Shown: in pieces, positions 1 through 49,198 of the stretch | Layout: every line of letters begins with the position of its first letter | Position numbering within the stretch: the first letter of the stretch is position 1 | Assembly (NCBI GenBank): GCA_050250375.1 | Contig: JBFWOS010000002.1 | Location: 374,345-438,344 of the forward strand | Direction of reading: 5' to 3' | Length of the DNA: 64,000 bases | DNA from: Candidatus Omnitrophota bacterium | GTDB taxonomy: Bacteria > Omnitrophota > Gorgyraeia > Zapsychrales > Zapsychraceae | Translations under genes and position numbers: made by a program | Notes under the pieces: model-generated | Told to the model about the DNA's origin: nothing | Seen by the model: the letters and a program-made list of their open reading frames with translations, nothing else | Databases searched by the model: none

Positions 1-173
1 GCGGAACTACTTGCGCGGTTGTTTTAGGTATATGAGTAGATGAGTGAAGCGAAAAAGAAGTGTAAAGTTAAAGGTTTAACGTTTAAAACTAAAGTGTTAA
101 TAAGTTAAGATTTTTTTATCGGTTTCATTTTAAACTTTTCACGTTAAACTTCTTGTTTTTAACCATTAAGAAT

Positions 174-1289
174 ATGATCCGTATTTTATTTATAATTTGG
201 TCTCTCGAACGCGGCGGCGCGGAACGGTTTTTAGCCGGATTGCTGGAGCATATGGACCGGACCCGTTTTGACCCGGTCCTGTGCTGCATGAACTGGAAAG
301 GGGAATGGGCAGAACCGCTGGAGAAAAAAGGGATAAAAGTCATCGCGCTCAACAAAAAAAACGGGATTGATTTGAAAGCCTTTCGGGCATTAGTCCGTAT
401 TATTAGAGAAGGGCGGTTTCAAATTGTTAATACCCATTTGTGGCTGGCTGATGTGATGGGCCGTGTGGCCGCAATTCTTTGCGGCGTACCGGTGATCATA
501 ACGACCGCTCAGAATGTGGATGTTTGGAAGAAATGGCATCACCGCCTGGTTGACCGGATCTTATCTTATAGAACGACAAAAATGATCGCCGTATCCAATG
601 CCGTAAAAGAATATTACCATCGCCAGGTCGGTTTTCCGGCGGCTAAGATTGAGGTTATACCGAACGCGATTGATGTATCCGCTTATGAGGATGCGGGGGA
701 TGTAACCTATCTGCAGAAAGAATTCGATCTGAAGCCGGGAGATTTTGTGCTGGCCTGCATCGGCCGGCTGAATTTACAAAAAGGGCATAAATATCTTCTT
801 GAGAGTTTAAAAGAAATATATAATGAAATGCCTGATTTGAAGGTTTTAATCGTGGGGGATGGCGAAGAACGGGACAATTTGAAACGAACCGCTGAAAACG
901 ATGGGATTATGCCGATGTTGCGATTTACCGGACAGCGCAAAGATATCCCGCAGGTCTTGGCATTATCCAAGGCGCTTATTTTGCCGTCGATTTTTGAAGG
1001 ATTGCCGTTATGTGTGCTGGAGGCGATGGCATCGGCCCGTCCGGTGATCGCGACCGATGTCGGCGGCACAAAAGAATTGGCGGTTGACGGCCAAACGGCA
1101 TTTATCGTTGAACCGAAAAGGCCGGAGTTGTTATCGGAAGCGGTCAGGCGGTTACGCGCGCTTCCTGATCAAGGCCGGCAGATGGGGATCAACGGGCGTG
1201 AAATCGTCAGACGAGAATTTTCGATTTCGACGATTACACGAAAAACATCAGATATGTTTGAACATTTAGTTGAGGGTGTCAATGTTTAA
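174..1289 (+). CDS. GT4-family (GT-B fold) glycosyltransferase
   Basis: N-terminal RILFIIWSLERGGAE and C-terminal EGLPLCVLEAMASARPVIATDVGG motifs typical of group-1 glycosyltransferases. ORF track starts at 153; I prefer the in-frame ATG at 174 (MIRILFII), which puts the conserved GGAE motif at the usual distance from the N-terminus. Confidence 0.78.
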   Translation: MIRILFIIWSLERGGAERFLAGLLEHMDRTRFDPVLCCMNWKGEWAEPLEKKGIKVIALNKKNGIDLKAFRALVRIIREGRFQIVNTHLWLADVMGRVAAILCGVPVIITTAQNVDVWKKWHHRLVDRILSYRTTKMIAVSNAVKEYYHRQVGFPAAKIEVIPNAIDVSAYEDAGDVTYLQKEFDLKPGDFVLACIGRLNLQKGHKYLLESLKEIYNEMPDLKVLIVGDGEERDNLKRTAENDGIMPMLRFTGQRKDIPQVLALSKALILPSIFEGLPLCVLEAMASARPVIATDVGGTKELAVDGQTAFIVEPKRPELLSEAVRRLRALPDQGRQMGINGREIVRREFSISTITRKTSDMFEHLVEGVNV

Positions 1290-4200
1290 GAAATTATTAT
1301 TTATTGCATTTATTTGGTATTTGCCATTGCAGTTAAAACTGCCTAATTTCCCGATCTTCCCGATGATCAATATTTTATTTATATTGTTAACGGGAGTCTT
1401 TTTAAGTTCGCGAAACGAAAAATTTGTCCGGCCCAGATTTGAGACACCGTTAATGTTTTTTCTAATTATATGGATGTTTTCTTTTGTATACGCGTGTATG
1501 TTCACGGATGGCATGCCGCGAGTTGAAATTGCCCGTGAATTTAAAAGGCTTTATTTATTGCCCTTGGGATACTTTATACTCTCAAGATGCATCACGGATA
1601 AAAAGGAAATTCCATTTTATTTTGCGGCCTTTCTTTTATGTCTTGTATTTGCTGGGCATAATACTTTACGTAATGGGGTTCTTGCCGGCGCGAATTATGC
1701 AATCCATAAAAGATCTTCCGGGCCTTTCGGGACGGACTGGCAGGCTTCGGATATAGCCGGAGGTTATATTGCTACCTTTACGCCATTGTTGGTTTCCTTT
1801 TTCTTTTTTTCTCGTCAACGTATGAGTAAATTATTAAGCGCAGTTGGTGTCGGTGCTTGTGGTCTTGGTTTGATGGCGACGTATTCCCGTGGTTCCATGA
1901 TGGCGTTACTCTTTGCTTGTATTGCTATTGTTATTGTGGGAACAAATGAACTTGCCAAGGAATCAAAGATTAATTTTTTGGTGATTATTATAGGATTGGT
2001 GGTTGGTTGTGTTTTTTGGAAAGCATGGGTTCCGCAATCGATAATTGCCAGGGTTGAAGGTACTATAGAATTGGATGACGAAGAAAAGGATTATTACGAT
2101 TATTCATTAACCGATGATGAAGGCGATAGTGTGCTGGATCAGAGTTCTCAATTGCGGATGAAAGCGTGGAACGAAGGGCTTCAATTCTTTATGGACAATC
2201 CTCTTACTGGAATCGGATTCCGACAAGTACAGTTTCAATTAGGCCATGACCCACACAACACTTTTGTTCTGATTGCCTCAGAAATGGGTGCGGTTGGATT
2301 TCTGATATTTGTCTGGCTTATATTCAGTGTTATGGGGCATGGGTTTAGATTAATGGGAACGGAATATAATAATCTTGCTGTAGGAACAGTCGGGATGATG
2401 GTTGGATTTATCGTGGTGAATTGTTTTTATTCTAATTTTTTCCGGGATAACGTTGCGGGCAGTTTTTGGGTAATACTGGCTATTATAGCAGCTGCCGATA
2501 ATTTCAGAGATGACCAATCCGATTCAACCAATAATAATTCAGATTTACCTGGAAATAAACGACAGACCTACGCGGAGTATCGTAAAAAATACTTAAAAAG
2601 CGTGTTGTTTATCTTTTTTGTGTTTTGTTTTACATCGTCTGCGATGGCCAGCGAAGTTAAAATTGAGAGATGGTGGTCTGAAAAGAATGTTTCACATTTG
2701 AGTGTACTAGATGATTTAAAGCCAGGATTGACTGGCGAGATATATTATGTTGATGGATTAAATGGAAATGACAACAATTATGGAAATTCATTGAAGTTCC
2801 CTTTTAAGAATATAGGTCGGGGAATTCAAAATTTAAAAGCCGGAGATATATTATTAATTAAAGCGGGTATTTATAAGGAAAAACTTTGGATTCAAACCGC
2901 TGGAACTCCTGAAAAACCTGTGATCATTGGTCCATATGGTGATGGTGAAGTCATTCTTGATGCTTCACTTGAAATAGACTCGTGGCAACCTTATAAAGGA
3001 AATATTTACAAGGTCAGTTGCAGTAAAGAAGTAGGTGCTGTGGTCATTGATGAAAATCCATTATTTCCAAATTATAATTTATATGAGCTGTCAGAAAATC
3101 AATGGTATTACGATATTGCTAACAAACTTTTGTATGTCTACCTTAAGAATGGCGAAAATCCAAATAATCATCCTGTAGGTGTCGTCGAATATTCAAAATA
3201 CAATCATGCGGTTTTTCTTAATGGTGCCCGCCACGTCTTTCTTTACGGGTTGACAGTGCGCTACGCGGGAGGTAAAGGAATTGAGATTTTAGGCCCGTAC
3301 AATCGGATAGAGCAGTGCAATATCAAGTTTAATGCGGCGCACGGCATAGGTATGTTTCGTTATGAAAATCAACATTCTGATTACACATCAGTTGTTAAGA
3401 ATCACGTATATCATAATTTTTTAATCAATTGGCCCAGAGGGCGTTGGCCATATAAAAATGGCGGGTGGGGAATGGGCATCGCCGGTTCTGCCAGTGAAAA
3501 TGGAGTGATCACCGGAAACGTTGTCCATAAGAACGGAGGAGAAGGTATTGGCGTTCCAGTTGTCGGAGGGCAAGTAATTGATAATATTGTGTATGATAAC
3601 TGGAGTGTGAATATTTATTCAGACAGTTCTTCAAAGGCAATTATTGACCGGAATTTAATCTATTGTGAAGATATAGATCCGGCGGACTTAACAAATAATA
3701 AGGATGAAAGACCTTGGGATGGCAGGAGCCTTAAACGTTTGAGAGCCGAGGGAATTATGACGGCGGATGAAGATGAGCCTGCGCTAAGCCATGATCTAAA
3801 AATAACAAATAATATCATCATAGGTTGTAGGAAGGGGGTTTCGCACTACGGCCCTGCTGCTTGGTCCGGATTGAAGGATGTGCTTGTTGCACATAATACG
3901 ATTATTTTGCCAGATGCAGACGGAATTTGGGAAGATTTTGTCGGAATTAATGTCCCATGGAATGAAGGCAATAACGCCGGGACCGTTTATCGGAATAATA
4001 TTGTTTATGCAACTCACAAAGATACATTGTTGGTTAACGTGGCGCATGATCCGTTATACAGAATTGAACCATTCCATGGGATTGCATTTGATCACAACAT
4101 TTGGTATCACACATCTCGAAAGAAACCATTTTATTTTGGGATCCCGCTGATAACCTTTTTTCAGGATTATGATTTTAAAGGCTGGCTGAAACGGGGGGAG

Positions 4201-4404
4201 GATAGAGATATTGATCGTGATAGTCAATATAAAGACCCTATGTTTGTTAATCGTATAGGTTTTACGGCAGAGTCCGTTAAACTCATGAAAAATTCACCGG
4301 CTGTGAATTCAGGAAAAATTATAGAGGGGCTTAAGACCGATTATATGGGAAATCCCAGGGATGAACGGCCTGATATCGGGGCGTTGGAGGTCATGTTCCA
4401 GTGA
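1282..4404 (+). CDS. O-antigen ligase / Wzy-like polymerase membrane domain (exosortase-associated O-ligase-like) fused to a C-terminal right-handed parallel beta-helix (pectin-lyase-fold) domain
   Basis: About 420 aa of polytopic membrane protein with a Wzy_C-like core (SRGSMMALLFACIAIVIVG, and so on). This is followed by about 600 aa with repeated NxxGxGIxV / NGGEGIGV beta-helix rungs. ATG at 1282 is preceded by GAGGGTG; the ORF-track TTG at 1270 is less likely. Confidence 0.7.
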   Translation: MFKKLLFIAFIWYLPLQLKLPNFPIFPMINILFILLTGVFLSSRNEKFVRPRFETPLMFFLIIWMFSFVYACMFTDGMPRVEIAREFKRLYLLPLGYFILSRCITDKKEIPFYFAAFLLCLVFAGHNTLRNGVLAGANYAIHKRSSGPFGTDWQASDIAGGYIATFTPLLVSFFFFSRQRMSKLLSAVGVGACGLGLMATYSRGSMMALLFACIAIVIVGTNELAKESKINFLVIIIGLVVGCVFWKAWVPQSIIARVEGTIELDDEEKDYYDYSLTDDEGDSVLDQSSQLRMKAWNEGLQFFMDNPLTGIGFRQVQFQLGHDPHNTFVLIASEMGAVGFLIFVWLIFSVMGHGFRLMGTEYNNLAVGTVGMMVGFIVVNCFYSNFFRDNVAGSFWVILAIIAAADNFRDDQSDSTNNNSDLPGNKRQTYAEYRKKYLKSVLFIFFVFCFTSSAMASEVKIERWWSEKNVSHLSVLDDLKPGLTGEIYYVDGLNGNDNNYGNSLKFPFKNIGRGIQNLKAGDILLIKAGIYKEKLWIQTAGTPEKPVIIGPYGDGEVILDASLEIDSWQPYKGNIYKVSCSKEVGAVVIDENPLFPNYNLYELSENQWYYDIANKLLYVYLKNGENPNNHPVGVVEYSKYNHAVFLNGARHVFLYGLTVRYAGGKGIEILGPYNRIEQCNIKFNAAHGIGMFRYENQHSDYTSVVKNHVYHNFLINWPRGRWPYKNGGWGMGIAGSASENGVITGNVVHKNGGEGIGVPVVGGQVIDNIVYDNWSVNIYSDSSSKAIIDRNLIYCEDIDPADLTNNKDERPWDGRSLKRLRAEGIMTADEDEPALSHDLKITNNIIIGCRKGVSHYGPAAWSGLKDVLVAHNTIILPDADGIWEDFVGINVPWNEGNNAGTVYRNNIVYATHKDTLLVNVAHDPLYRIEPFHGIAFDHNIWYHTSRKKPFYFGIPLITFFQDYDFKGWLKRGEDRDIDRDSQYKDPMFVNRIGFTAESVKLMKNSPAVNSGKIIEGLKTDYMGNPRDERPDIGALEVMFQ

Positions 4405-5543
4405 GTATTGATGTAAATAAAATCAAGGTGCTTTTCGTTCATCCCAACAATAAACTCACCGGCCAGGAATTCTCGCTGATTGAGCGGATGAGGGCGTTAA
4501 GAAAGTTCGATGTGTGGTGCGAATTGCTTTTGCCGGAAGAAGGGGATTTCAGCCGGCTGGTGGGCGAGAATGATTTTCCGATCCATTATTGCGAGATGGA
4601 CCGGTTAAAAAAGTTAAATCCGTTTCCGTATTTAAGAACTCTGAAACGGATCCATAAAATCGTTGCCGACCACAAACCAAGCCTGATTCATTGTTCGGGA
4701 ATATATCCGAACCATTTCTGCCTTCCGGTCGCGCGCTTTAATAACCTGCCGATTATCGGCCAGGTGACAACGGATGTTTACAATGAATACGATATCAGCT
4801 CTAACTTCGTCAAGAAAATGGATTTGATCATCACCTGTTCGCTGGCCGCCAAACATCATCTGGAAAAAATGGTTGAAATCGACAAAGATAAAATTATCTG
4901 TATCTACGACGGTATTTCGGAAAATAACCGGGATTTTTCCAAGGAAGAGATCGGTAAGCTGAGAGAGGAATTCAAGGTGGGGGAGGATGACAAGGTTGTC
5001 GGGCAGTTATCGGAGATCATTCCCCGTAAAGGCTGTGAATATTTTATCGAGATGGCGTACAAGGTTAAACAGTTTTTCCCGAAAGTTAAATTTTTTATTG
5101 TCGGAAAAAATCACGGTGATGAGTATGAAAGAAAACTGCGGGAGCAGATCAGGTCGTTGAAACTGGAGAAAGATGTGATCCTGACCGGGTTCAGAAAAGA
5201 TTATTACGCGTTTTTGCAGATGTTTGATGTCAGTGTGCTGGCTTCCCTGGCTGAAGGATTGGGCCGGGTCATTGTCGAAACACAATATATGGCCAAACCG
5301 GTGGTGGCAACCGCGGTGTCCGGGAATGTTGAGGCGATTGAAGACGGCAAGAACGGTATGCTGGTCCCGCCGCAGAATCCGGAAGAGCTGGCGAAAAAGG
5401 TCACCGAACTTCTGAACGATCCGGAAAAAGGCAGGACGCTGGGCGCCTGCGGTTTTATATCGGCCAAGAATACATTCAGTCTGGCGAAACACGCCAGCAC
5501 CTTAAAAGAAATGTATATCAAATTGTTAAAGGAATATCGATAA
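4401..5543 (+). CDS. GT4-family glycosyltransferase
   Basis: C-terminal GT-B motifs (VLASLAEGLGRVIVETQYMAKPVVATAVSGNVE). GTG start overlaps the upstream stop (GTGA), with GGAGG 11 nt upstream. Confidence 0.78.
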   Translation: MSIDVNKIKVLFVHPNNKLTGQEFSLIERMRALRKFDVWCELLLPEEGDFSRLVGENDFPIHYCEMDRLKKLNPFPYLRTLKRIHKIVADHKPSLIHCSGIYPNHFCLPVARFNNLPIIGQVTTDVYNEYDISSNFVKKMDLIITCSLAAKHHLEKMVEIDKDKIICIYDGISENNRDFSKEEIGKLREEFKVGEDDKVVGQLSEIIPRKGCEYFIEMAYKVKQFFPKVKFFIVGKNHGDEYERKLREQIRSLKLEKDVILTGFRKDYYAFLQMFDVSVLASLAEGLGRVIVETQYMAKPVVATAVSGNVEAIEDGKNGMLVPPQNPEELAKKVTELLNDPEKGRTLGACGFISAKNTFSLAKHASTLKEMYIKLLKEYR

Positions 5544-5564
5544 GAGAGATAAAGGTGACGAGTG

Positions 5565-6263
5565 ATGAATAAAACATCCATATTAATCCCGACAAGATTT
5601 AATAACCGTTGGCCGTTGGAACTGACGTTTCAGACGATCCGGAAATATACAAAATGCCCGTATGAGATCATCGTTGGTGACGCGGGGATGGAGCCCGAAG
5701 CGCTGGAATTCGTCAAGGCGCAGAAGGATGTCCAGATTTGTCCTTGTCCGGATCCGATCCGGCCTAAAGATACGCTGGCCCGGTTTGCCCAATCTCCTTA
5801 TTTAATGTTTGTTCATGACGACATCCAGGTGCTCAAGGATGGTTGGCTGGAGCGCAGGATTGAATTGATGGAATCGGATCCGCGGGTCGGGGTAGTCGGT
5901 GAAATGAGCCACAATTACCTTGAAGGCTGGCGCTGGAAAAGATATTTTACGTTTTCACCGATTCATAAGCGGTTTTTTCCGCTGGGAATGCTGGTCCGCA
6001 AGAAGACCCAGGACCATCTCGAGCTGAAATGGGGGATTGAACGGGGATTTGACACCGGCGGTATTGCGTATCTGCAATTCTATAAACAGAAAGACTGGAA
6101 ATATAAAAAATATTTGTTCGGACAGGATATCAAACATTGGGGGCAGATGACCTGGGTGTTAAAGGAACGCAAACACACAACGCTGAATCTAAAGGAATTA
6201 CAAGATGAACGGCAGGTCAAGGTGAATATGATCAAAGAACTGCTGGCCAAGAAACAATATTAA
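5565..6263 (+). CDS. GT2-like glycosyltransferase (divergent)
   Basis: N-terminal SILIPTRFNN...EIIVGDAG and an HDD motif resemble a GT-A fold, but it is short and divergent. AAAGGTGA RBS lies before the ATG. Confidence 0.45.
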   Translation: MNKTSILIPTRFNNRWPLELTFQTIRKYTKCPYEIIVGDAGMEPEALEFVKAQKDVQICPCPDPIRPKDTLARFAQSPYLMFVHDDIQVLKDGWLERRIELMESDPRVGVVGEMSHNYLEGWRWKRYFTFSPIHKRFFPLGMLVRKKTQDHLELKWGIERGFDTGGIAYLQFYKQKDWKYKKYLFGQDIKHWGQMTWVLKERKHTTLNLKELQDERQVKVNMIKELLAKKQY

Positions 6264-6276
6264 GAATCTGAAAACC

Positions 6277-7215
6277 ATGAATGACATCCGACATCCTTTA
6301 GTCAGTATCGTTACGCCTACCTTTAACCGCAGCCGTTTTATCGATCGTCTGGTTAAAAATGTGCTGGCGCAGACGTATCAGGATTTCGAACTCGTCCTCG
6401 TGGATGACGGATCTACTGACAATACCCGGGAGTTGGTTGACCGGTGGATTAAAGAGAATCCCGGCCGTATCCAATATGTCTATCAGCCGAACCAGGGGTC
6501 GGGAGCGGCGCGTAACAACGGGATTAAACAGGCAAAAGGTAAATATATTGCCTTTCTCGATTCTGATGATGAGTGGACGCCGGACTATCTTGACAAAATA
6601 ATGACGGTATTGGAAAAAGGTGAATTTCAATGGACCGTCACCGGTGCCCGGCGTATCGATATCGGCAAGGACGGCCGTGAGCTGGATACGAAACTGATCC
6701 GTTGTCACCTGCAGGAGTTCAGCCATTTTTTTAAACGGGAATTAAACGTATATGAAGCGTTATTGACCGGAAATGTGGTCGGTGAAACTTCACGGATTGC
6801 CGTCCTGAAACAGGCGCTTTTAGCGGTGGGCGGTTTTCGGGACCATTTGAAACTCAGCCAGGATTATGAATTATGGCTGAGGCTGGCCAAAGCCGGCTAC
6901 AAATTGTTTATAACGGATGAACCGCTGGTCCTCTACCGTAAAAGCGTGGACAGCGTCACAAAAACACGCCTGGTTGAAGGTTTGCGTTACGGGTTTGAGA
7001 TCATCTGCGAATACAGCCGGGACGCGGTGAAACTGGATCCGATGTACCGGAAATTTTATGGCGAGAAATTGTGGGGATATGCCCGTGACATTCTTCATCA
7101 GCCGAAGAGGGACTATATTTTGATTCTAAAATGCATGATCAAAAGCTTGATGTTTGATTTTAATCTGACGAGAATATTTTCTTCATTAAATACTAACATG
7201 AATGTATCCAAATGA
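6277..7215 (+). CDS. GT2-family glycosyltransferase
   Basis: Classic GT2 N-terminus VSIVTPTFNRSRFIDRLVKNVLAQTYQDFELVLVDDGSTDNT, with a DSDDE motif. Confidence 0.82.
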   Translation: MNDIRHPLVSIVTPTFNRSRFIDRLVKNVLAQTYQDFELVLVDDGSTDNTRELVDRWIKENPGRIQYVYQPNQGSGAARNNGIKQAKGKYIAFLDSDDEWTPDYLDKIMTVLEKGEFQWTVTGARRIDIGKDGRELDTKLIRCHLQEFSHFFKRELNVYEALLTGNVVGETSRIAVLKQALLAVGGFRDHLKLSQDYELWLRLAKAGYKLFITDEPLVLYRKSVDSVTKTRLVEGLRYGFEIICEYSRDAVKLDPMYRKFYGEKLWGYARDILHQPKRDYILILKCMIKSLMFDFNLTRIFSSLNTNMNVSK

Positions 7216-7979
7216 CCGATGATAAAATTATATTGATGTACCACGGGATTACGGAAGAAGGCTTGATGCCGCCTTCCGAACGTGAGGTCGGCGCCGATCT
7301 TTATGATGTCAGGGTTGAAGACTTTTCCGCCCAGCTTGAATTGATCCGTAAAAAAGGGCTGGGTGTCAAAAAAATCGAAGAGGCCGGCACCAATGACATT
7401 GTCATCACCTTTGACGATGGTGAGTTTAATAATTTCAGTCTGGCCATGCCGTTGTTAAAACAGCACCAGTTCCCGGCGTATTTTTTTGTTATTACCAAGA
7501 GAGTCGGCCGTCCGGGTTATGTGCGGATGGAAGAAATTAAGGAGATGGTAAAGCAGGGCATGATCGTCGGTTCACACGGCATGAGTCATGAGGCGCTAAC
7601 CAACCTGAAAGACACCCTGCTTAATGAAGAACTGTCGGCGTCCAAGAAATATCTGGAACGGAATCTGGGCATTACCATTAATGATCTGTCGATCCCGCGG
7701 GGGTTTTGTAATGACAAGGTGCTGGATATGGCCTACGCCGCCGGTTACAAAAATGTATTTATTTCCGGACGGCCCAAAGACCTGGTCAATACGCTTTGTC
7801 ACAGCCGGGTGGCCGTGAAGAAAAACTGGGATCTTAAGCGGTTTGAGATGGCTTTAGACCGGCAGGTTCCGATTAAGGAAACGCTGACGGAGAAGACCAA
7901 AAATTTCAGTAAGCTTATTTTACGGGAAAACGGATATAACTGGATACGCAGCACATTATTAAAATTATTTAAAGGCTGA
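7212..7979 (+). CDS. polysaccharide deacetylase (NodB homology domain; PEP-CTERM-locus type)
   Basis: ITFDDGEFNNF...VGSHGMSHEAL motifs of the carbohydrate esterase 4 / NodB domain. The position inside an exosortase locus matches the PEP-CTERM-locus deacetylase subfamily. Confidence 0.75.
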   Translation: MTDDKIILMYHGITEEGLMPPSEREVGADLYDVRVEDFSAQLELIRKKGLGVKKIEEAGTNDIVITFDDGEFNNFSLAMPLLKQHQFPAYFFVITKRVGRPGYVRMEEIKEMVKQGMIVGSHGMSHEALTNLKDTLLNEELSASKKYLERNLGITINDLSIPRGFCNDKVLDMAYAAGYKNVFISGRPKDLVNTLCHSRVAVKKNWDLKRFEMALDRQVPIKETLTEKTKNFSKLILRENGYNWIRSTLLKLFKG

Positions 7980-7999
7980 TTCGACAGGATTTAAATCAT

Positions 8000-9748
8000 A
8001 TGGCGAAATTGTTATGTTTGATGAATAACCGCAATGAAGCGTTTCCGCAGAAGGCGGTTGACGCGTTGAGTTACAACAAGGATTGGGAATTCCATTGTTA
8101 TAAAGGCGGCATGGTTTATATGGCCGCGCTGGATCTTCCCTTTAAGAATGTCAGTGATTATTGGCTGGAGGATGATCGTTATGTCCTGATGGTTGATGGA
8201 GAGATTATGTCCTGGAAGGATGAGCCTCAGGATCCTTCAACCGCGCAAAAGCTCCTCAATTTATATCGTTCCAAGGGGCCGGATATGGTCGATTATCTCA
8301 ACGGCAACTTTACTTTGTTCATTTTCGATAAACGGGAAAAATCTTTATGGGTCGCGAACGACCGGATGGGGCTAAGGCCGCTGTATTATTTCGAATACAA
8401 CGGAAAATGTTGTTTTTCATCGGAAGTAAAGGCGTTATTGGCTGATGAGGAATTCCCGGGGAAGTGCAATCTTCAATCAGTCCTTGATTTGCTGACCTAT
8501 GAATACGTCCTGGAAGACCTGACGCTGGTTGAAAATATCTTTGTCTTTCCTTATGCGTCAACCGCCCTGATTGACTCCCGCACGCAGAAACTGGTCCCGC
8601 AGCGTTATTGGGATTTTAATTATCAGCGGGTAGACCAGGCTGAATTGACCGACCGGTATATGGAACAGTATCTGGGTGTGTTCACGCAGGCGGTTGAACG
8701 CACGATGAAAGGGACGTATGCGCCGGTTGGATTGCCGCTCAGCGGAGGCCTCGATTCACGGCTGATTGCCGCGGTCATAGATCGAAGATATTTTCCATTG
8801 CATACATTCACCTTCGGGGAAAAAGGATGTGATGATGTAAAATACGCCCAGAAAATCAGCCGTATCCTGGGTGGAAGTCACCATTATATCCCGATCAAAC
8901 ATGAAGAACTGGGTTCTTTTTTTGAAAAAGGCGTTTCATACAGCGACGGGATGTTTACCTGTCTGCATTATCATTATCTGAATATGACGGATGAACTGGC
9001 CGCGCATGTCAAGATCGCACTCGACGGAATGGCCGGGGATGTTTTTCCCCGCCGGATGTATTCCTATCTTGAGGGGACAGATGTCAACGCCGCCTTTAAA
9101 GCCTTTGATACCTTTGGAGAAAATTTAAGGAGCCGGATTTTTAAGAAAGAATATGCCGGGGATCTTGCAACAGCCCGGCAAAGATTTGACGGGTTATTTG
9201 ACCGTGTGGCCAGGGCCTGTCCGGTGAGCCCGGTTGATTATCTCAATATAACCCAACGGCAGCGAAAGTTTATCAATTACGGCAAGGTCGGGAAACGCAA
9301 TTATGTTGAGATGCGGATGCCGTTTCTCGACTACGATTTTATGGATTTTTGCCTGACGATGCCGCTGGATTTCCGTTTAAACGGCAAACTTGTCAAAAAT
9401 ATTTTCAGGAAATATTATCCGGCCCTGTCCCGCGTTCCGAAGGCTGATGCCGGTCCGCTTTTTCCGAATCGAATTCAGCAGGCGGTTCATTGGAGGATGC
9501 AGGCGTTGAAAACCAAGCTTGGGATCAATTCAAGTTATGCGGATTATAAAAAATATTTCAGGACATTTTTAAAGGGGTTCATCCACGGACAACTTACGTC
9601 CGCAGAATTTAGACGGGTCCCGTATTTCGATCATCAGGAAGTGGGTCAACTGCTGGATGAGCATTTCTCCGGGCAGCAGAATTATGAAAAACAAATCGCG
9701 GCCTTGCTGACTGTTGCCATCTGGTCCAAACAATATTTTAAACAATGA
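8000..9748 (+). CDS. asparagine synthetase (AsnB)-like amidotransferase, exosortase-locus associated; N-terminal Cys nucleophile absent
   Basis: PP-loop SGGLDS motif (LPLSGGLDSRLIAAV), plus RDxxGxxPLYY and SExKAL motifs shared with AsnB. The N-terminus is MAKLLC rather than MCG. Confidence 0.72.
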   Translation: MAKLLCLMNNRNEAFPQKAVDALSYNKDWEFHCYKGGMVYMAALDLPFKNVSDYWLEDDRYVLMVDGEIMSWKDEPQDPSTAQKLLNLYRSKGPDMVDYLNGNFTLFIFDKREKSLWVANDRMGLRPLYYFEYNGKCCFSSEVKALLADEEFPGKCNLQSVLDLLTYEYVLEDLTLVENIFVFPYASTALIDSRTQKLVPQRYWDFNYQRVDQAELTDRYMEQYLGVFTQAVERTMKGTYAPVGLPLSGGLDSRLIAAVIDRRYFPLHTFTFGEKGCDDVKYAQKISRILGGSHHYIPIKHEELGSFFEKGVSYSDGMFTCLHYHYLNMTDELAAHVKIALDGMAGDVFPRRMYSYLEGTDVNAAFKAFDTFGENLRSRIFKKEYAGDLATARQRFDGLFDRVARACPVSPVDYLNITQRQRKFINYGKVGKRNYVEMRMPFLDYDFMDFCLTMPLDFRLNGKLVKNIFRKYYPALSRVPKADAGPLFPNRIQQAVHWRMQALKTKLGINSSYADYKKYFRTFLKGFIHGQLTSAEFRRVPYFDHQEVGQLLDEHFSGQQNYEKQIAALLTVAIWSKQYFKQ

Positions 9749-9754
9749 TTCATT

Positions 9755-10921
9755 ATGGTTGTTAACGGTATGAAATTTTTATTCTGGTTTTTTATGTTCC
9801 TCATTGCGTATTGTTATTTTTTTTATCCGGTTCTGTTGAGAGTTTTTGCGCGGCTGGTTCCCAGGAAAATTAACAAACAAACTATAACTCCGTCGGTATC
9901 GGTTGTTATTTCAGTCTGGAACGAAGAGGACGTCATCGAAGCCAAGCTGAACAATTTTTTAGCCCTGGATTATCCGGCAGATCAATTTGAAATCCTTATC
10001 GGATCGGACGGATCAACCGACCGGACAAATGCGATCATCAGGCAGTTTCAGGATCAAAGGATCCGCCTGGTTGAGTTGAATGACCGCAAAGGAAAAATGG
10101 CGACGCTGAACCGTCTGGTTGCGCTCGCGAAAAATGAAGTCATTATTTTTACGGACGCCCGGCAGACATTTGAACGTAATGCGATCAGGGAATTGGTCGC
10201 CAATTTTGCGGATCCCACGGTCGGATGTGTGAGCGGGGAGTTGATTTTTTCAAGTAAAGAAGGGGGGACGGCGCGGGGGATCAACCTGTACTGGAATTAT
10301 GAAAAGTTTATGAGGGATTGTGAAAGCCGGATCCATTCCATGCTGGGAGCGACCGGAGCGATTTACGCCATCCGGCGGGAACTGTACAGCGAAGTGCCGG
10401 TCGAAATAGTCCTGGATGATGTTTATATTCCTTTTAAGATTATCCAAAAAGGGTACCGCGCCATCTTTGACGGGGCCGCCAGGGCTTATGATGAAGTCGC
10501 GGACAGTCCCCGGGAAGAGTACAGGCGCAAGGCCAGGACGTTATTCGGGAATTACCAGATTTTCAAACGTTTCACGGGTTTGTTCAATCCGTTTAGCAGT
10601 CCGGTCGCCATCCAGTTTTTTTCGCATAAGTTTTTAAGGGTTATTGTTCCGTTTCTGATGATTGGAATTTTTTGTCTTAATATCGCGCTGGTTTATGATC
10701 CGTTTTACCGGATGGTGCTGGTGTTGGAAATTGTCTTTTACGGCATGGCCGTAACAGGCGCCTTGGCAAGACACCAAAAGTATGGTATTCTCAAACTTCT
10801 TTCCAGGGTCTGCTATGTGCCATATGTCTTTTGTCTGCTGAATTTTTCAGCGCTGATTGGTTTTATAAGGTACATTGGTTCAAAACAAACTATAACCTGG
10901 GAAAAGGCAAGGGCTCAATAA
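9755..10921 (+). CDS. membrane-bound GT2-family glycosyltransferase (synthase-like)
   Basis: N-terminal TM, then SVVISVWNEEDVIEAKL...ILIGSDGSTDRT, DAR and QxxRW-like region and C-terminal TM helices. Architecture resembles processive GT2 synthases. Confidence 0.7.
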   Translation: MVVNGMKFLFWFFMFLIAYCYFFYPVLLRVFARLVPRKINKQTITPSVSVVISVWNEEDVIEAKLNNFLALDYPADQFEILIGSDGSTDRTNAIIRQFQDQRIRLVELNDRKGKMATLNRLVALAKNEVIIFTDARQTFERNAIRELVANFADPTVGCVSGELIFSSKEGGTARGINLYWNYEKFMRDCESRIHSMLGATGAIYAIRRELYSEVPVEIVLDDVYIPFKIIQKGYRAIFDGAARAYDEVADSPREEYRRKARTLFGNYQIFKRFTGLFNPFSSPVAIQFFSHKFLRVIVPFLMIGIFCLNIALVYDPFYRMVLVLEIVFYGMAVTGALARHQKYGILKLLSRVCYVPYVFCLLNFSALIGFIRYIGSKQTITWEKARAQ

Positions 10922-10923
10922 TT

Positions 10924-11757
10924 ATGGAAAAACTGACCAGTTTTGTTAAATCTAACCGGAAAATACTCTTGTCATTTTTTGTCATGGCGGTCGTGTATTT
11001 TCCGACCTTGATCTGGATGTGGGACCGGTGGTGGGTCAGGGATTCTTATTATTCACACGGTTTTTTGATCCCGATTGTCAGTCTATACCTGATTTACCAG
11101 ATGAAAGACGAGCTTTCCAAGATCAAAGTTAAGGAATCACCCTGGGGCATGAGGATGGTTATCGCCGGCGTTTTGCTGCATCTTTTCGCGTCGCATCCGA
11201 ATATCCGTGTATTTTTTATATCGGGGTTTTCGATGATGTTTGTCGTGTCCGGGATAATTTTGTATTTTTACGGCGAGGAGATTTTTAAGAAAATTTCTTT
11301 TCCGTTAGCGTTTCTGGTTTTTATGATCCCGCTGCCATTGGTGGTCATCAATAAACTCAGCCTTCAGTTAAAGATGTTTGCGGCCGAGCTGGCGGCGATC
11401 ACGCTTAATAATATGCGGATTCTGGCAGTCAGGGAAGGGAGTATTATCCGGATGCGCCACGCGCAGGTTATTGTCGATGATGTGTGCAGCGGGCTGCGAT
11501 CGTTAATTTCGCTGGCAGCCCTGGGAAGTATTTTTGCTTATTGGCTGAAGGGGGCCACCTGGAAAAAATTGATATTATTTTTTTCCACCATACCGATCGC
11601 GATCATTACCAATATGTGCCGGGTGGTGGTCTTGTCCTGCATCAGTGAAATCTGGGGCACCGAATACGCCGACGGATTTGTCCATGACATGACCGGGTTT
11701 ATGGTGTTTGCGCTGGCATTTGTCATGTTATACACGGTAGGGAAATTGCTCGAATGA
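10924..11757 (+). CDS. xrtA: exosortase (XrtA/EpsH-like)
   Basis: Polytopic membrane protein with the exosortase catalytic-Cys motif DDVCSGLRSL. It sits directly upstream of an EpsI-like gene and in a locus with PEP-CTERM proteins. The ORF-track start at 10831 overlaps the previous gene; the ATG at 10924 follows its stop. Confidence 0.78.
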   Translation: MEKLTSFVKSNRKILLSFFVMAVVYFPTLIWMWDRWWVRDSYYSHGFLIPIVSLYLIYQMKDELSKIKVKESPWGMRMVIAGVLLHLFASHPNIRVFFISGFSMMFVVSGIILYFYGEEIFKKISFPLAFLVFMIPLPLVVINKLSLQLKMFAAELAAITLNNMRILAVREGSIIRMRHAQVIVDDVCSGLRSLISLAALGSIFAYWLKGATWKKLILFFSTIPIAIITNMCRVVVLSCISEIWGTEYADGFVHDMTGFMVFALAFVMLYTVGKLLE

Positions 11758-12383
11758 AAAATAAAAAATTAATCTTCGTTGGCGTGCTTGTCATTATTTC
11801 AGGGATCGTGTCCTGGACCACTTATCTCAGGGAGTACATTCAGGAAGATACGGTCAACATTCACTCATTTCCCAAGGAAATAAACGGCTGGGTCTCCGAA
11901 GAAATCCCGATCTCGGATGTTGAATACGCGATCCTGGAAACCCGCAACGCGTTTGTCCGCCGGTATACAAATCCCCAGGGAAAAGAAGTGTATATGTTTA
12001 CGGTTTATTCGCAAAAAAACCGTAAGGTTTCCCATCCCCCGGAGGTGTGTTATACCGGAGGCGGGGTCCGGGTGTCCAGCAATGAGATTGACACCATTCA
12101 TGTGCCGGAGGGTAATCTTACGATCAAGGCCCATAAACTGGGCCTTGAACAGAAAAATTACAAGCAAATCGCGTATTACTGGTTCAAGGTCGGGAAGTCT
12201 TTTACCCCCAGTTACTTCAAACAGCAATTGATGATTTTGACGAAAAATTTTGTCGGTAAGCCGGAAAGCAGTGCCCTGATCCGGGTCTCAGCGACCGTTT
12301 TAACGGATGAGGAAAGCGCCGTTGCGGATATCAAAGAGTTTACCGGTGTGATGCTCCCGCACATTTTTCAACACCTTCCTTAA
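11754..12383 (+). CDS. epsI: EpsI-family exosortase-associated protein
   Basis: About 209 aa with an N-terminal signal anchor. Its start overlaps the xrtA stop, which is the typical EpsH-EpsI gene pair arrangement. Confidence 0.6.
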   Translation: MKNKKLIFVGVLVIISGIVSWTTYLREYIQEDTVNIHSFPKEINGWVSEEIPISDVEYAILETRNAFVRRYTNPQGKEVYMFTVYSQKNRKVSHPPEVCYTGGGVRVSSNEIDTIHVPEGNLTIKAHKLGLEQKNYKQIAYYWFKVGKSFTPSYFKQQLMILTKNFVGKPESSALIRVSATVLTDEESAVADIKEFTGVMLPHIFQHLP

Positions 12384-12581
12384 TCTATATAATAAATTAA
12401 AATATGTTCACCCTGTTCAACATGTGTTGATAAAATTAAACATTACGAAGATGGATTTGTCATGGGATGTCTGTATTTGTCATAGTATGTCCTAGTGACC
12501 GGAATAAACGAAATTTATTTAAGTATATTATTTACAGCATTTTATGTAATTATTGAAATATGGGTTGATTGTGTTCTAAAG

Positions 12582-12598
12582 TTGGCACGCATATTGCT
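12582..12598 (+). promoter_or_regulatory. sigma-54 (RpoN) -24/-12 promoter TTGGCACGCATATTGCT
   Basis: Exact match to TGGCACG-N4-TTGCW with GG and GC correctly spaced, about 50 nt upstream of the sugar-transferase ATG. A sigma-54-dependent activator is encoded at 18179..19576. Confidence 0.62.
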
Positions 12599-12648
12599 CT
12601 ATTCGTGGGTACGTATATATTTATGAAAACGTTTTCACGAGGAGCAGC

Positions 12649-13503
12649 ATGACAAGAAAGAAGAAACAACTAGAAACAAGAAAAAGAATTTTAGCCGGTT
12701 TATTTGTGATGGTATTCGGCTTATGTGTGGCATCAGCCTGGGCAACGGTTTCATTCGTAAAACCTCAGGATGCTTCCCAATATATAGCGACTGCAGACCG
12801 ATCCGAGATCCCAGCTGATGTAACAGAAACAGCCAAAACACGGGCCCCGGAACCTTCAACAATGGCCCTTTTTGGCGGCGGTATCGTGGGTATGGTGATG
12901 AGTTTTATCCGAAGGACTTATGCGGCGGTCAAAAGAGTGTTTGACGTTGTGGCTTGTGTTGCCGGGGCGATCATCCTTTCGCCACTATTGATCCTGGCGG
13001 CGGTTTTGGTCAGGGTAACGTCCAAAGGCCCGATTATCTATTCGCAGACACGGGTCGGGAAAGACGGACAGCATTTCCAAATTTATAAATTTCGCACAAT
13101 GAGAGTTGATGCTGAAAAAAATACCGGTCCTGTCTGGGCGGCTAAAGATGATAAACGCTTGACCCCGGTCGGTAAATTTTTAAGAAAATCGCATATTGAT
13201 GAACTTCCCCAGCTTTTTAATGTGTTTAGAGGGGAAATGAGTGTGATCGGACCAAGACCTGAGCGGCCTGTTTTTGTCACCGAATTCAAACAGATTATCC
13301 CCAATTACGAAAATCGATTGGCGGTAAAACCCGGTATCACCGGTTTGGCCCAGGTCTGGCACCGGTATGATGAAACGATCCAGGATGTGAAGAAAAAGTT
13401 AAGATATGACCTCCTATATATCAGAAGGATGTGTTTCTGGGCTGACCTGAACATTATCCTCAGAACAGTTCGCGTTGTCATTACAGGGGAGGGAGCCCGA
13501 TAG
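12649..13503 (+). CDS. polyprenyl-phosphate sugar transferase (small PGT / EpsB-like 'bacterial sugar transferase' domain) with an N-terminal extension containing a PEP-CTERM-like motif
   Basis: C-terminal catalytic domain YKFRTMRVDAEKNTGPVWAAKDDKRLTPVGKFLRKSHIDELPQLFNVFRGEMSVIGPRPERP. The N-terminus has a signal anchor followed by PEPSTMALFGGGIVGMVMSFIRR. GAGGAG RBS is present. Confidence 0.82.
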   Translation: MTRKKKQLETRKRILAGLFVMVFGLCVASAWATVSFVKPQDASQYIATADRSEIPADVTETAKTRAPEPSTMALFGGGIVGMVMSFIRRTYAAVKRVFDVVACVAGAIILSPLLILAAVLVRVTSKGPIIYSQTRVGKDGQHFQIYKFRTMRVDAEKNTGPVWAAKDDKRLTPVGKFLRKSHIDELPQLFNVFRGEMSVIGPRPERPVFVTEFKQIIPNYENRLAVKPGITGLAQVWHRYDETIQDVKKKLRYDLLYIRRMCFWADLNIILRTVRVVITGEGAR

Positions 13504-13605
13504 ACAACACCTCATACATTACATCTTTAGGGAGATGTTTAATATAAAGATTAAAACAATGAAAAAAAACATAATCAAAAAAGTTCAAACAAGGGGAGTA
13601 GAAAA

Positions 13606-14485
13606 AATGAAGAAATTATTTTACGTACTTGCACTTGCTCTGACCGTTGCTTTACCGGCAACAGGGGCAATGGCTGATCCTGGCCCGTACGACACAACAA
13701 AATGTGCCGATAATAACGGTGGCGGTGTCTTTACAGCCTGCGAATCAAACAACACGGTTGATGTCTTTAATGCCATCAACAAGGTCTTTACAGACCGTGG
13801 TTTGGCTTCACCGGGATATACTGATAATGAAGGAACAGATGCCGTTCAATATGTTGCGCAGAACGAATTCTGGTCACAATTATCATCTGATGACTCATCA
13901 CAATTCGCTTTTATTTCGCTGACAGCGGGCAATTTAAACACCTTGGGTGTTTTTCCGGCTGGCGGTAATGCGGCAACCGATTCAACATTCTTTTCACTTA
14001 CTTTTACTGGTGAACAATTTACCGGTAATGGTACAATTGGTAATCCATATCCTGGTTTTACCAATCCGTTGAATAATGTTGATTTTGGTTTTTCACTAAA
14101 ATCAAATAATGAACCATTTTATACAAATATTCTTTCTTCAGTTCCTGGACAAAATGCTGATGGATTGGATCATATGCTGACTTTTGAATTGTCAGCCTTG
14201 GCTGGTCAAACCATCTATGTCAAATTGGATGGAAACAACGATGGGGACCTGGATGACGTCGAAGACACATTGGTAGAAATTGAACTGACCGATGAGACAT
14301 TCCTGATCGCCTGGGAAGATCTTTTTAATTCTTCTGCTGAGTTTGATTCTGATTACAATGATTCAATTTTCTTGGTTACCAAGATCAAACCAACAGACCA
14401 TGTCGTTCCTGAACCAATGAGTATGTTATTATTCGGAAGCGGTTTGGCCGGTTTAGTGGCTACTCGCCGAAGAAAAGTTTGCTAA
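13606..14485 (+). CDS. PEP-CTERM domain secreted protein (exosortase substrate)
   Basis: Signal peptide MKKLFYVLALALTVALPATGAMA; C-terminus VPEPMSMLLFGSGLAGLVATRRRKVC is a canonical PEP-CTERM sorting signal. AAGGGGAG RBS is present. The ORF-track start at 13475 has a long unconserved leader. Confidence 0.82.
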
Positions 14486-15127: not shown

Positions 15128-15991
15128 ATGAAAGAGAAAAAATCACAACCTAAAATTTTTACAATCCTGCGCTCATCCGTCAATACAATTTTCACGAATG
15201 ACGCCATCATTTTTCCATTCTTTGTCATTATATTTTTTCAACTGTTAATTTTGGAAATTTTGTATTTCATTCCGCAATGGCCGCTGAATGTCTTTTTCGG
15301 TCCGATCGTGGCGAAACTCTGGTCGGTTACCTATATGCATTATCCGTTTAATCTGGTACTATTGCCGAAATTATTTTATTATGCGCTAATCCCGGTTTAT
15401 ATTCTGTTGTCCAGTTTTTTGATTTGCATGGCGATTTCCGCCATTCTCATGATCAATAACGATGAAGAACCTAAAGTGGGGGTAATTTTCAAACGGCTGC
15501 TTCCTTCCTATATATATATCGTTGTATGTTCGGTGATCACATTTTTCTTTATCAAACTTTTTATGCAGGGTTATGACCTGATTTATGAACGGGCGATGAA
15601 TATCCGCTCCCAGGCTGGGCCGATTTACTGGCTTAAAGCAACGGTTGTTCAGGGGGCGCCTTATTTTAAAGTCCTGTTGAATGTGCTGGGAACAACCATG
15701 TTTGCTTATGTGTTTCCGCTGATTGTCATTGAAAAACGCAATGTGTTTACAGCCATCATCGAGAATTTGAAATATGTGATAACAGCCCCGATTAAGACAT
15801 TCCTCATTGTCCTTATCCCGACATTGTTATATATCCTTATTCTGTTATCCCGGGGGCATGTCCCGTTTGAAGCGGAAATCCCTGAAATGCGGGTGGTATC
15901 GATCGTGGTGAGTGTTTTGGTGATGGTTTTTATTGACGCGGTCATTTATACATCCATAACAACATTTTATTTAATCAGAAAAGGACAGTAG
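15128..15991 (+). CDS. polytopic integral membrane protein, function unknown
   Basis: 287 aa with at least 7 hydrophobic helices; no recognisable motif. Confidence 0.5.
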   Translation: MKEKKSQPKIFTILRSSVNTIFTNDAIIFPFFVIIFFQLLILEILYFIPQWPLNVFFGPIVAKLWSVTYMHYPFNLVLLPKLFYYALIPVYILLSSFLICMAISAILMINNDEEPKVGVIFKRLLPSYIYIVVCSVITFFFIKLFMQGYDLIYERAMNIRSQAGPIYWLKATVVQGAPYFKVLLNVLGTTMFAYVFPLIVIEKRNVFTAIIENLKYVITAPIKTFLIVLIPTLLYILILLSRGHVPFEAEIPEMRVVSIVVSVLVMVFIDAVIYTSITTFYLIRKGQ

Positions 15992-47987: not shown

Positions 47988-48221
47988 CTATCCAAACTTC
48001 ATATTATCAGAAACAGTATCATCTTCTAAATAAAACTCAACGTCCCCCACTCCGCTCTTTCCATCATAATTACTCCGAAAATGAAAATGATTTTTTGTTT
48101 TATTTCCTTTATTTTCTTTTAGCCAATTAAGATTTGAGATTAATTTATCAATGTCTTTTTCTTTAAGTCCAATAAATAAGCCAAACCATCCCGTATTAAA
48201 GTTCTCAATATTTATGTTCAT
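47988..48221 (-). CDS. hypothetical small protein, cassette ORF
   Basis: 77 aa; AT-rich; no motif. Confidence 0.4.
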   Translation of the reverse strand: MNINIENFNTGWFGLFIGLKEKDIDKLISNLNWLKENKGNKTKNHFHFRSNYDGKSGVGDVEFYLEDDTVSDNMKFG

Positions 48222-48423
48222 AAATTCTTCCTTGCTTTATAAGATTGCATTATCTTGTCGGGGGAACATGTTCATTACCCCCATTCCTTTCACTATCATG
48301 CCAATGTGGCCCCAAACCTGGCTGGTTGGGTCCACCTTCTCTGTCCCATCGTCTTCTGGTCCATTCCAATGACGGTGTTTTCCGCCCGTATTATCACTTG
48401 CTTTTGGCTCTTCTGTCTACCCT

Positions 48424-48478
48424 TCTGGAGGGACCCAATCATCGGGATTGGCTGAAAAGCAGGGTCCGTCCCTAGTTA
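48424..48478. repeat. degenerate/partial H element
   Basis: AAAAGCAGGGTCCGTCCCTAGTTA is identical to the right arm of H. The left arm is degenerate (GGGACCC). The element supplies the TAG stop of the 93-aa ORF. Confidence 0.6.
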
Positions 48479-48753
48479 GTCTGATTATTTTCCATTTTCC
48501 TCTTATTATAAACATCTATTAATAGCTTTAAATCTTTTTCATATTCTTCTAAACTAGCCCAACCACTTTCTTTGGAAAAAGTTCTTTCTAACGTCAAATC
48601 CAAATAATTTGCTATTTGTTTCAATTTTTCAAACAACAAAATCTCACGATGTCGGTCTAGTAGTTTAATAATCTTATTAGACTTTCGTAATTCTTTAATT
48701 AAAGATTGAACACTCTGTAGATCTTTTTCCCATCTATCTTCATTAAAATTCAT
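48472..48753 (-). CDS. hypothetical small helical protein, cassette ORF
   Basis: 93 aa, charged, AT-rich; its stop codon lies inside the H-like element. Confidence 0.45.
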   Translation of the reverse strand: MNFNEDRWEKDLQSVQSLIKELRKSNKIIKLLDRHREILLFEKLKQIANYLDLTLERTFSKESGWASLEEYEKDLKLLIDVYNKRKMENNQTN

Positions 48754-48767
48754 ATTAATCTGACCTT

Positions 48768-48800
48768 CCCCGCCTTAAACCGTAGTTATTTTGTAACATT
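48768..48800. repeat. R1 repeat copy C (5' 33 nt), interrupted by the H element
   Basis: CCCCGCCTTAAACCGTAGTTATTTTGTAACATT followed immediately by H at 48801..48865. Confidence 0.8.
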
Positions 48801-48865
48801 TAATAAATAGGGACGGAGGCTATTTATTGGACAAATGTCAAAAGCAGGGTCCGTCCCTAGTTATT
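48801..48865. repeat. H hairpin element copy 2
   Basis: TAGGGACGGAGGCTATTTATTGGACAAATGTCAAAAGCAGGGTCCGTCCCTAG. It contains the TAG stop of the 101-aa ORF. Confidence 0.8.
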
Positions 48866-49162
48866 CACAATAATAAAAATTACCTTTTCCCAATAAAAGA
48901 CAAAGAATCCGAATATGTTTAATACAAGTATAAAAATAAATGCCTCGTATTTTTTACGCCAGAGTAGATAAGTTAAAATGAAATACAAAAATACCCATGC
49001 CCCCTGAAGAATGATTGTTGTCGGTTTGTCTAAGAGCCATGCCGAATTTGCACTCATAAAACTATGTGGATTCGACAATACAGTATGTGGAATATAAAGT
49101 GCAAAATAACACGCCACAATAGAATTTACTATAACAAGTAATGGAAGAACGAATTTAGCCAT
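48857..49162 (-). CDS. small membrane protein (3 TM), cassette ORF
   Basis: 101 aa, hydrophobic; ends in the CCCTAG of the H element. Confidence 0.45.
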   Translation of the reverse strand: MAKFVLPLLVIVNSIVACYFALYIPHTVLSNPHSFMSANSAWLLDKPTTIILQGAWVFLYFILTYLLWRKKYEAFIFILVLNIFGFFVFYWEKVIFIIVNN

Positions 49163-49198
49163 ATTCGTAAAATTAGGGACAGTGGACTAGACGAAAGT

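Follow-up and report, generated by a model that had tools for sequence, protein, structure and literature searches.

Can one polypeptide both extend a glycan and process it? The question is posed by a gene in the 64,000-nucleotide stretch of DNA that we analysed (hereafter the window; positions 374,345 to 438,344 of contig JBFWOS010000002.1, Candidatus Omnitrophota bacterium), in which a membrane domain of the Wzy/O-antigen ligase type is continuous with a large parallel β-helix. An earlier reading of the bare sequence (the original prediction) had proposed that such a protein would couple chain growth to processing or length control. The fusion itself is almost certainly genuine, and we consider it fairly probable that it joins a polymerase (or ligase) to a periplasmic, glycan-processing β-helix that would act on nascent exopolysaccharide.

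Reality and origin of the fused gene

The gene is a single uninterrupted open reading frame (Table 1). A mechanically compiled list of open reading frames begins it at TTG 1270, but the identical database protein, P0001, begins at the ATG, the start used here; the only public name of P0001, given by NCBI, is 'O-antigen ligase family protein [Candidatus Omnitrophota bacterium]'. Both domains are recognized on the same chain: Pfam matches Wzy_C (PF04932) to amino acids (aa) 192-344 with 64.2 bits (cutoff 31.7) and Beta_helix to aa 640-792 with 57.5 bits (cutoff 25.9), weaker Pfam matches are to NosD, DUF1565 and the chondroitinase-B cap, and NCBIfam reports, above its cutoff, a choice-of-anchor Q domain at aa 997-1037. 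The full-length AlphaFold (AF2) model has a mean predicted local distance difference test score (pLDDT) of 88.2 and a predicted template modelling score (pTM) of 0.64.

Exactly this 1040-aa protein is found in three independent assemblies, namely an NCBI metagenome-assembled genome (MAG; 1.0-Mb contig) and two Logan assemblies from different sequencing runs. Full-length fused homologues at 70, 66 and 44% identity can be aligned with it end to end, and there are two further fused lineages (P0019/L005/L012 and P0125/L011; P and L numbers are our labels for proteins and loci). In both of the fused loci examined, L005 (P0019) and L007 (P0004), genes for a deacetylase, a GT2 glycosyltransferase, EpsH and EpsI lie directly 3′ of the fused gene. 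When 1.84 billion representatives were searched exhaustively with a profile, only three clusters at 50% identity gave end-to-end matches; more than 200 such clusters reached E≤1e-30 against the full-length profile, the best 150 of them mostly through the β-helix half. The fused architecture is real but rare, and the diverged homologues together with the independent assemblies show that it is conserved. The view that it is an assembly or annotation artefact, in which a sequencing error deleting a stop codon joined two adjacent genes, draws on relatives in which the two genes are only ~21 nucleotides apart, but has a negligible chance of being correct given the identical product in one NCBI MAG and two Logan assemblies, the orthologues at 44-70% identity from other samples and an in-frame linker of 30-40 aa that is conserved within clades.

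Relatives of the C-terminal domain mostly occur as free-standing proteins about 600-630 aa long. The split arrangement is seen in Omnitrophica 4484_70.2 (L001/L002), which has a 402-aa Wzy_C gene and a 602-aa β-helix gene, the pair with the ~21-nucleotide spacing, in a gene order matching that of the window. The 402-aa protein aligns over its whole length with aa 3-407 of the fused protein (44% identity), and the 602-aa protein aligns from its residue 6 with aa 439-1036 (46% identity), its signal peptide falling onto the 13th membrane helix described below. By these alignments, the fused gene arose from adjacent genes. Related genomes thus do encode the two halves separately, a circumstance that the original prediction had linked to a lost stop codon as grounds for abandoning the fusion. 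A lost stop codon is ruled out by the independent assemblies and the diverged fused orthologues, and the separate genes instead represent the evolutionary origin of the fusion.

Two domains and the helix that joins them

A profile built from 27 sequences of the N-terminal domain found a sole match in the PDB, WaaL (7TPG, E=1.7e-14), and a Foldseek search with the full-length model returned 7tpg_B (E=1.3e-9, TM-score 0.60), WaaL being the only membrane protein among the matches. Together with the Wzy_C match, these results support the predicted assignment to the Wzy/O-antigen ligase type. Of the 12 helices that AF2 builds in this domain (from H2-19 to H389-418), nine precede the large periplasmic loop and three follow it, and the hydropathy profile concurs. 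The loop is strongly acidic, with 16 Asp/Glu against 5 Lys/Arg. Residues R203, R257, R292, W296 and H325-N326 do not vary among the 27 aligned sequences; they align with the matching region of WaaL, those of the loop with its catalytic-loop region in 7TPG, and are putative catalytic residues. The domain does not belong to the TIGR03097 (PEP_O_lig_1) family as defined by NCBIfam, its score being 40.9 bits against a cutoff of 188.1.

Between the membrane domain and the β-helix lies a short linker with pLDDT below 50 at aa 418-428, followed by a hydrophobic segment that AF2 models as a 13th helix at aa 430-453. In alignment, this helix coincides with the signal peptide at the N-terminus of the 602-aa β-helix protein that L001 encodes separately, and all six fused homologues (6/6) keep the layout of a signal peptide: a basic n-region, a hydrophobic core and a c-region with Ala at −1 and Ala or Val at −3, located 3-6 residues ahead of a conserved RWW motif. 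An N-terminal signal peptide or anchor is present in 65 of the 72 complete stand-alone members, where it typically ends in '…A/E' (the slash here and below marks the cleavage point) a few residues ahead of RWW, which argues that the β-helix family is extracytoplasmic. In a WaaL-type arrangement, both termini of the 12-helix core are cytoplasmic. A cytoplasmic C-terminus followed by a 13th helix therefore puts the β-helix in the periplasm, on the side of the catalytic loop, a placement that we regard as highly probable. The pTM of the model and the low pLDDT of the linker indicate a flexible tether with no defined interface.

Some stand-alone members of the family deviate from this layout. P0028 and P0016 (820-830 aa) and P0026 and P0029 (619-634 aa) carry an N-terminal membrane anchor in place of a cleavable signal peptide, and P0028 and P0016 have in addition a domain of ~200 aa, without a Pfam match, ahead of RWW. 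Type IX secretion system (T9SS) tails and SLH, Calx-beta and FN3 modules also occur in relatives of the β-helix.

Domain search and structure prediction agree that the C-terminal ~580 aa form a right-handed parallel β-helix of the pectin-lyase-like fold: the Pfam Beta_helix match is accompanied by a three-dimensional β-helix. The predicted kinship with polysaccharide hydrolases, lyases and epimerases is upheld at the level of the fold, the nearest solved structures being glycoside hydrolases and lyases of families GH120, GH136 and PL9. In searches of the family profile against the PDB, the sequence similarity to these enzymes is concentrated in the N-terminal cap; structural alignments span more of the helix. 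A precomputed match to PF22842 (Pel9A-like) is faint. The motif NGGEGIGV, which had been cited as a sign of repeated rungs, is present within NVVHKNGGEGIGV at aa 746-758; it occurs once, and one rung had been counted twice.

Column conservation across 84 family members singles out a set of consecutive rungs. The conserved residues comprise Y710, N712, N716-W-P-R719-G, W729, N751-G-G-E754-G, D772-N-W-S-V-N, Y779 and D781, and further along the helix D829-E830, N843-N844, R850 and Y856, so that the core signature of the family reads NWPRG, NGGEG, DNWSVN and ADE. E754 is present in 84/84 members, E830 and D772 each in 83/84 and D829 in 78/84. Asn takes the place of D772 in one fused homologue, P0003, and in one of the stand-alone relatives. 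With invariant carboxylates and aromatic residues on consecutive rungs, and hydrolases and lyases as the nearest folds, catalysis by this domain is plausible. The carboxylate-rich residue set and the lack of uronic-acid synthesis genes in the locus, where only GalE and a second, unassigned short-chain dehydrogenase/reductase (SDR) enzyme were seen, make us lean towards a hydrolase; overall, we give glycan cleavage a slight preference as the activity of the β-helix.

Possible coupling of chain growth to glycan processing

To what extent do the two domains function together? A scan with one genome per species identified 76 loci that encode the β-helix family, distributed over many phyla. In 21 of these 76 loci, a local profile search located a member of the same Wzy-like subfamily no more than 10 kb from the β-helix gene. 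The two genes are fused in L011 and L012, are same-strand neighbours in L013 and L014, and stand back to back on opposite strands, 68-101 nucleotides apart, in L040, L042 and L044 (Burkholderiales and other proteobacterial MAGs). In these three proteobacterial loci, no exosortase came to light within 10 kb of the pair. In L040, the pair (9548-13144) is located amid two AsnB-like amidotransferases, GT4 enzymes, a GT2 and a FemAB-like acetyltransferase. By our own estimate, which is not a computed statistic, this pairing is far commoner than chance would give for a gene with one or a few copies in each genome, and the two proteins very likely work together. A neighbour-joining tree of the membrane domain, built without support values, distributes the fusions over three clades with split forms between them, and the linkers are unrelated between clades, which suggests either several fusion events or a fusion that was later split again.

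Combining the domain assignments with the gene neighbourhoods, we propose the following model. The only Wzy_C-family gene of the locus has merged with a neighbouring gene for a secreted right-handed β-helix protein, probably a carbohydrate-active enzyme. The membrane domain, as a candidate polymerase or ligase, would handle undecaprenyl-diphosphate-linked repeat units on the periplasmic face of the membrane. A short basic linker would connect its cytoplasmic C-terminus to what was once the signal peptide, which would now serve as a 13th membrane helix and carry the β-helix across. In the periplasm, the β-helix would either remain on a flexible tether beside the catalytic loop or be released by signal peptidase I, and it would cleave or trim the nascent exopolysaccharide in a clearance, length-setting or release step. 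The repeat-unit polymerase is the default assignment of the membrane domain because this is the only Wzy_C protein of the locus (neither a second Wzy_C gene nor a further Wzy candidate from any known family was found there), a 479-aa Wzx flippase is encoded upstream and a priming transferase is encoded downstream. We infer that the membrane domain is a polymerase rather than a ligase and that the β-helix acts on the polymer of its own locus.

The coupling of chain growth to processing or length control remains plausible on these data and is strengthened by the recurrent gene pairing, but several observations weigh against it and against the model as a whole. First, searching the PDB with a profile of the conserved core (aa 690-925) gave nothing significant (best E=0.31); as the core matches no solved enzyme by sequence, no activity can be transferred by homology. 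The Asn at the position of D772 means either that this residue is non-catalytic or that those copies are inactive, and it suggests that not every conserved acid is essential. Second, rigid docking of the β-helix onto the polymerase was considered and rejected, with a pTM of 0.64, low-confidence linkers and no confident inter-domain packing in the AF2 model. Third, a signal-peptidase-like site is retained at the junction, so that the two halves may come apart once translocation is complete. Fourth, several close relatives do without the β-helix. Among stand-alone proteins, P0253 (75% identity) is nearest to the N-terminal domain; its locus is colinear with the window gene for gene, and the protein stops at the linker motif YAEYRKRYL, which is retained even in relatives that have no β-helix. 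L008 (9001-10311), a locus with this gene-for-gene colinearity, lacks the β-helix, and in L006 (225-1658), L009 (9001-10464) and L010 (1151-2635) the linker and helix 13 are followed by a short unrelated tail, the β-helix having been lost. These four loci rule out universal retention of the fusion in the clade, and such colinear close relatives imply that the β-helix was lost secondarily and is dispensable for making the polymer. Finally, the Wzy_C family also includes ligases and O-oligosaccharyltransferases, and the nearest NCBI model, a putative O-glycosylation ligase, is matched far below its cutoff.

The locus of one of these β-helix-less genes, L009, encodes at 5181-7328 a 715-aa protein for which no Pfam match is recorded and which weakly resembles the β-helix domain (25% identity, E=1e-17). 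This distant paralogue may be a replacement partner.

The retained cleavage site lends itself to a different interpretation, in which the fused product is a polyprotein: signal peptidase I would cut at …SSAMA/SE, freeing a soluble periplasmic β-helix and leaving a 13-helix polymerase, so that the fusion would ensure 1:1 co-expression and co-insertion with no lasting tether. The signal-peptide layout shared by all six fused homologues fits this account, as does its presence in stand-alone relatives (…YLSA/ESANRWW), the decay of the small-residue site in those β-helix-less relatives that keep helix 13, and the pLDDT below 50 around the site. The site may, however, merely have been inherited, with its decay still to come, and P0026, P0028 and P0029 are permanently anchored by an N-terminal membrane helix, which makes tethering natural for this family. 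We regard cleavage into two proteins as a real but lesser possibility.

Less probable, and in our judgement unlikely, is that the N-terminal domain is a WaaL/PglL-like ligase that would move a finished glycan to a lipid or to PEP-CTERM proteins processed by the exosortase, with the β-helix selecting or preparing the glycan or the acceptor. WaaL is the only solved relative of the domain, the exosortase-A-associated 'putative O-glycosylation ligase' TIGR03097 is its closest NCBIfam model, and the locus also carries genes for an exosortase and a PEP-CTERM protein. The TIGR03097 score is nevertheless a fraction of the cutoff, a Wzx/Wzy pathway whose flippase is present would be left without a polymerase of any known family, and the proteobacterial loci have the same gene pair with no exosortase found within 10 kb.

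The remaining alternatives concern the function of the β-helix. It could be a non-catalytic guide, scaffold or ruler that binds glycan and either keeps hold of the growing chain or docks the polymerase to export components, but we find this improbable in view of the invariant Glu/Asp, the Asn ladders and the Trp/Tyr on four consecutive rungs, a pattern usual for an active-site groove and maintained in 84 members down to ~30% identity, and in view of the T9SS, SLH, Calx-beta and FN3 modules of its relatives, which are typical of secreted enzymes. An equally improbable, more specific version of cleavage would make the β-helix a built-in terminator or release enzyme, tethered where the chain leaves the Wzy active site and possibly inside the co-polymerase cage, which would cut at a set length or free the chain from its undecaprenyl-diphosphate carrier. 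If true, this would constitute a mechanism of chain-length control or release that is independent of Wzz-type rulers and has been hard-wired at least two or three times by fusion. Modification of the polymer without cleavage, by a C5-epimerase like AlgG/AlgE or by an esterase, is more doubtful still: the DPHD/DPHE epimerase motif is absent from aa 460-1040 (the sole DPH of the protein is in the membrane-domain loop), the locus shows no uronic-acid synthesis gene, having GalE and the second SDR enzyme only, and the best PDB match of the core (E=0.31) is not significant. On balance, we retain the reading in which a polymerase, or a ligase, carries its own glycan-cleaving β-helix.

The surrounding locus and known parallels

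The fused gene is embedded in a long series of polysaccharide genes on the same strand (Table 1). For the GT4 enzyme directly upstream, the closest NCBIfam model is the PEP-CTERM/XrtA glycosyltransferase TIGR03088, which is matched below its cutoff. The order of the polysaccharide genes downstream is repeated in L008, L087 and L088. EpsH and EpsI are encoded next; NCBIfam models TIGR02602 and TIGR02914 score 181.4 bits (cutoff 105.6) and 83.2 bits (cutoff 42.8), respectively, and the start of EpsH was taken from the 277-aa gene called in L087. No named Xrt subtype of NCBIfam reaches its cutoff for this exosortase, the generic TIGR02602 alone being passed. The priming transferase matches TIGR03025 with 311.8 bits (cutoff 295.6) and the PEP-CTERM protein matches PF07589 with 26.1 bits (cutoff 20.7). 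With EpsH, EpsI and a PEP-CTERM substrate beside polysaccharide genes, this is an exosortase/PEP-CTERM polysaccharide locus, and the exosortase context assumed by the original prediction is confirmed. Further downstream are genes for a TPR protein, a GAF histidine kinase, a sigma-54 response regulator and sugar epimerases.

Table 1. Coordinates of the fused gene, its parts and its neighbours in the window.
Feature	Position	Strand	Basis
Whole fused gene	1282..4404	+	Uninterrupted open reading frame from ATG 1282 to the stop codon ending at 4404; 1040 aa plus stop codon
WaaL/Wzy_C-type membrane domain, aa 1-418, 12 transmembrane helices	1282..2535	+	Pfam, profile, AF2, Foldseek
Large acidic periplasmic loop, aa 246-326, with R257, R292, W296 and H325-N326 (DPHN)	2017..2259	+	Hydropathy, charge, alignment
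Cytoplasmic linker, aa 409-440: low-complexity stretch, then basic patch KRQTYAEYRKKYLKS	2506..2601	+	Hydropathy, charge
13th membrane helix, putative relic signal peptide, aa 430-459, ending ...VLFIFFVFCFTSSAMA/SE	2569..2658	+	Alignment to stand-alone signal peptide
Right-handed parallel β-helix domain, aa 460-1040, predicted periplasmic	2659..4401	+	
Conserved rungs with candidate active-site residues, aa 710-856	3409..3849	+	Column conservation, 84 family members
GT4 glycosyltransferase directly upstream, 8-nucleotide overlap with the fused gene	153..1289	+	Pfam Glycos_transf_1, Glyco_transf_4
GT4, GT2, GT2, polysaccharide deacetylase, AsnB-like amidotransferase, GT2	4401..10921	+	Pfam
Exosortase EpsH and EpsI	10924..12383	+	Pfam Exosortase_EpsH 221.7 bits; DUF3485/EpsI 104.5 bits
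Priming polyprenyl glycosylphosphotransferase and PEP-CTERM protein	12649..14485	+	Pfam Bac_transf, PEP-CTERM

Several other elements of the window deserve mention. The priming transferase (12649-13503, + strand) is short, at 284 aa, and has a weak match to the PEP-CTERM motif at aa 66-89, probably its membrane helix; the same weak match is present in its L008 orthologue. Inside the exosortase locus, at 15128-15991 (+ strand), a 287-aa multi-pass membrane protein without a Pfam or NCBIfam match could be an unrecognised component of the pathway. Far from this locus, a 172-aa open reading frame at 50081-50599 (− strand) opens with an Rhs/YD core-tip motif (…YDPSIGRFLQRDPIGYADSLNLYEYAVSNPIKFIDPFGL) and continues into a unique tail of ~120 aa, with no long YD-repeat shell upstream. 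It is located beside the stretch with the lowest GC content of the window (47988-50051; 0.337), which contains small open reading frames, some of them membrane-like. These features suggest an orphan polymorphic-toxin tip accompanied by candidate immunity genes. An Rfam scan of the window found no RNA families.

A natural fusion of a Wzy-type polymerase with a glycanase would be Rosetta-stone evidence that both act at the same place, and the same two families are adjacent in several phyla, their fusion seeming to have arisen more than once. The uncharacterised but widespread β-helix family, with its distinctive conserved core, is a candidate for a new family of carbohydrate-active enzymes, and the fused gene offers a compact construct for studying the coupling of polymerase and glycanase. 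Both domain families are already known, as is the idea of a self-encoded glycanase; in the literature searched, we found no description of the Wzy-β-helix fusion, of the cross-phylum module or of the β-helix core.

How does the fused protein relate to systems that have been described? With WaaL (7TPG) it shares the 12-helix fold, the large periplasmic loop and the conserved Arg and His residues, but the two are only 16% identical, helix 13 and the 580-aa periplasmic domain are additions of the fused protein, and its gene lies in a polysaccharide locus that also encodes an exosortase and a Wzx flippase, unlike the lipopolysaccharide core locus of WaaL. The TIGR03097 putative O-glycosylation ligases, which are exosortase-A-associated, belong to the same superfamily and occur in the same kind of locus, but the fused protein lies outside that equivalog. 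On the β-helix side, the nearest solved enzymes are GH120 (XylC, 3VST), the GH136 lacto-N-biosidases, BT_1002 (5MQP) and PL9 Pel9A (1RU4), to which the conserved core of the fused protein shows no match in sequence; without such a match over the candidate catalytic core, neither their substrates nor their mechanisms can be taken over. The catalytic residues of GH120, GH136 or PL9 were considered for the domain and rejected, as the core profile finds none of these families and a single-sequence search matches the cap only.

Enzymes that break down the polysaccharide made by their own operon are common, PslG (a TIM-barrel enzyme of family GH39), BcsZ, AlgL, PelA and RbmB among them; the reason for this and its physical link to synthesis are debated. 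Among enzymes with a β-helix, the Vibrio polysaccharide lyase RbmB and the alginate epimerases AlgG/AlgE are, like the domain described here, encoded inside polysaccharide loci. They are, however, separate proteins with 14-18% identity to it, the epimerase motif is absent from the fused protein and the sugar genes of its locus give lyase chemistry no support. In the Psl pathway, the periplasmic endoglycosidase PslG accompanies a Wzy polymerase and has been proposed to act as a failsafe that clears chains gone astray in the periplasm (PMC13434223). As the closest functional parallel, the PslJ (Wzy polymerase)/PslG pair of Pseudomonas aeruginosa resembles the fused locus, as proposed here, in that a Wzx/Wzy-type locus encodes an extracytoplasmic, product-acting enzyme beside its polymerase. 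PslG is a separate protein, whereas the partner described here is a β-helix translated within the polymerase chain, and hence placed at the polymerase itself.

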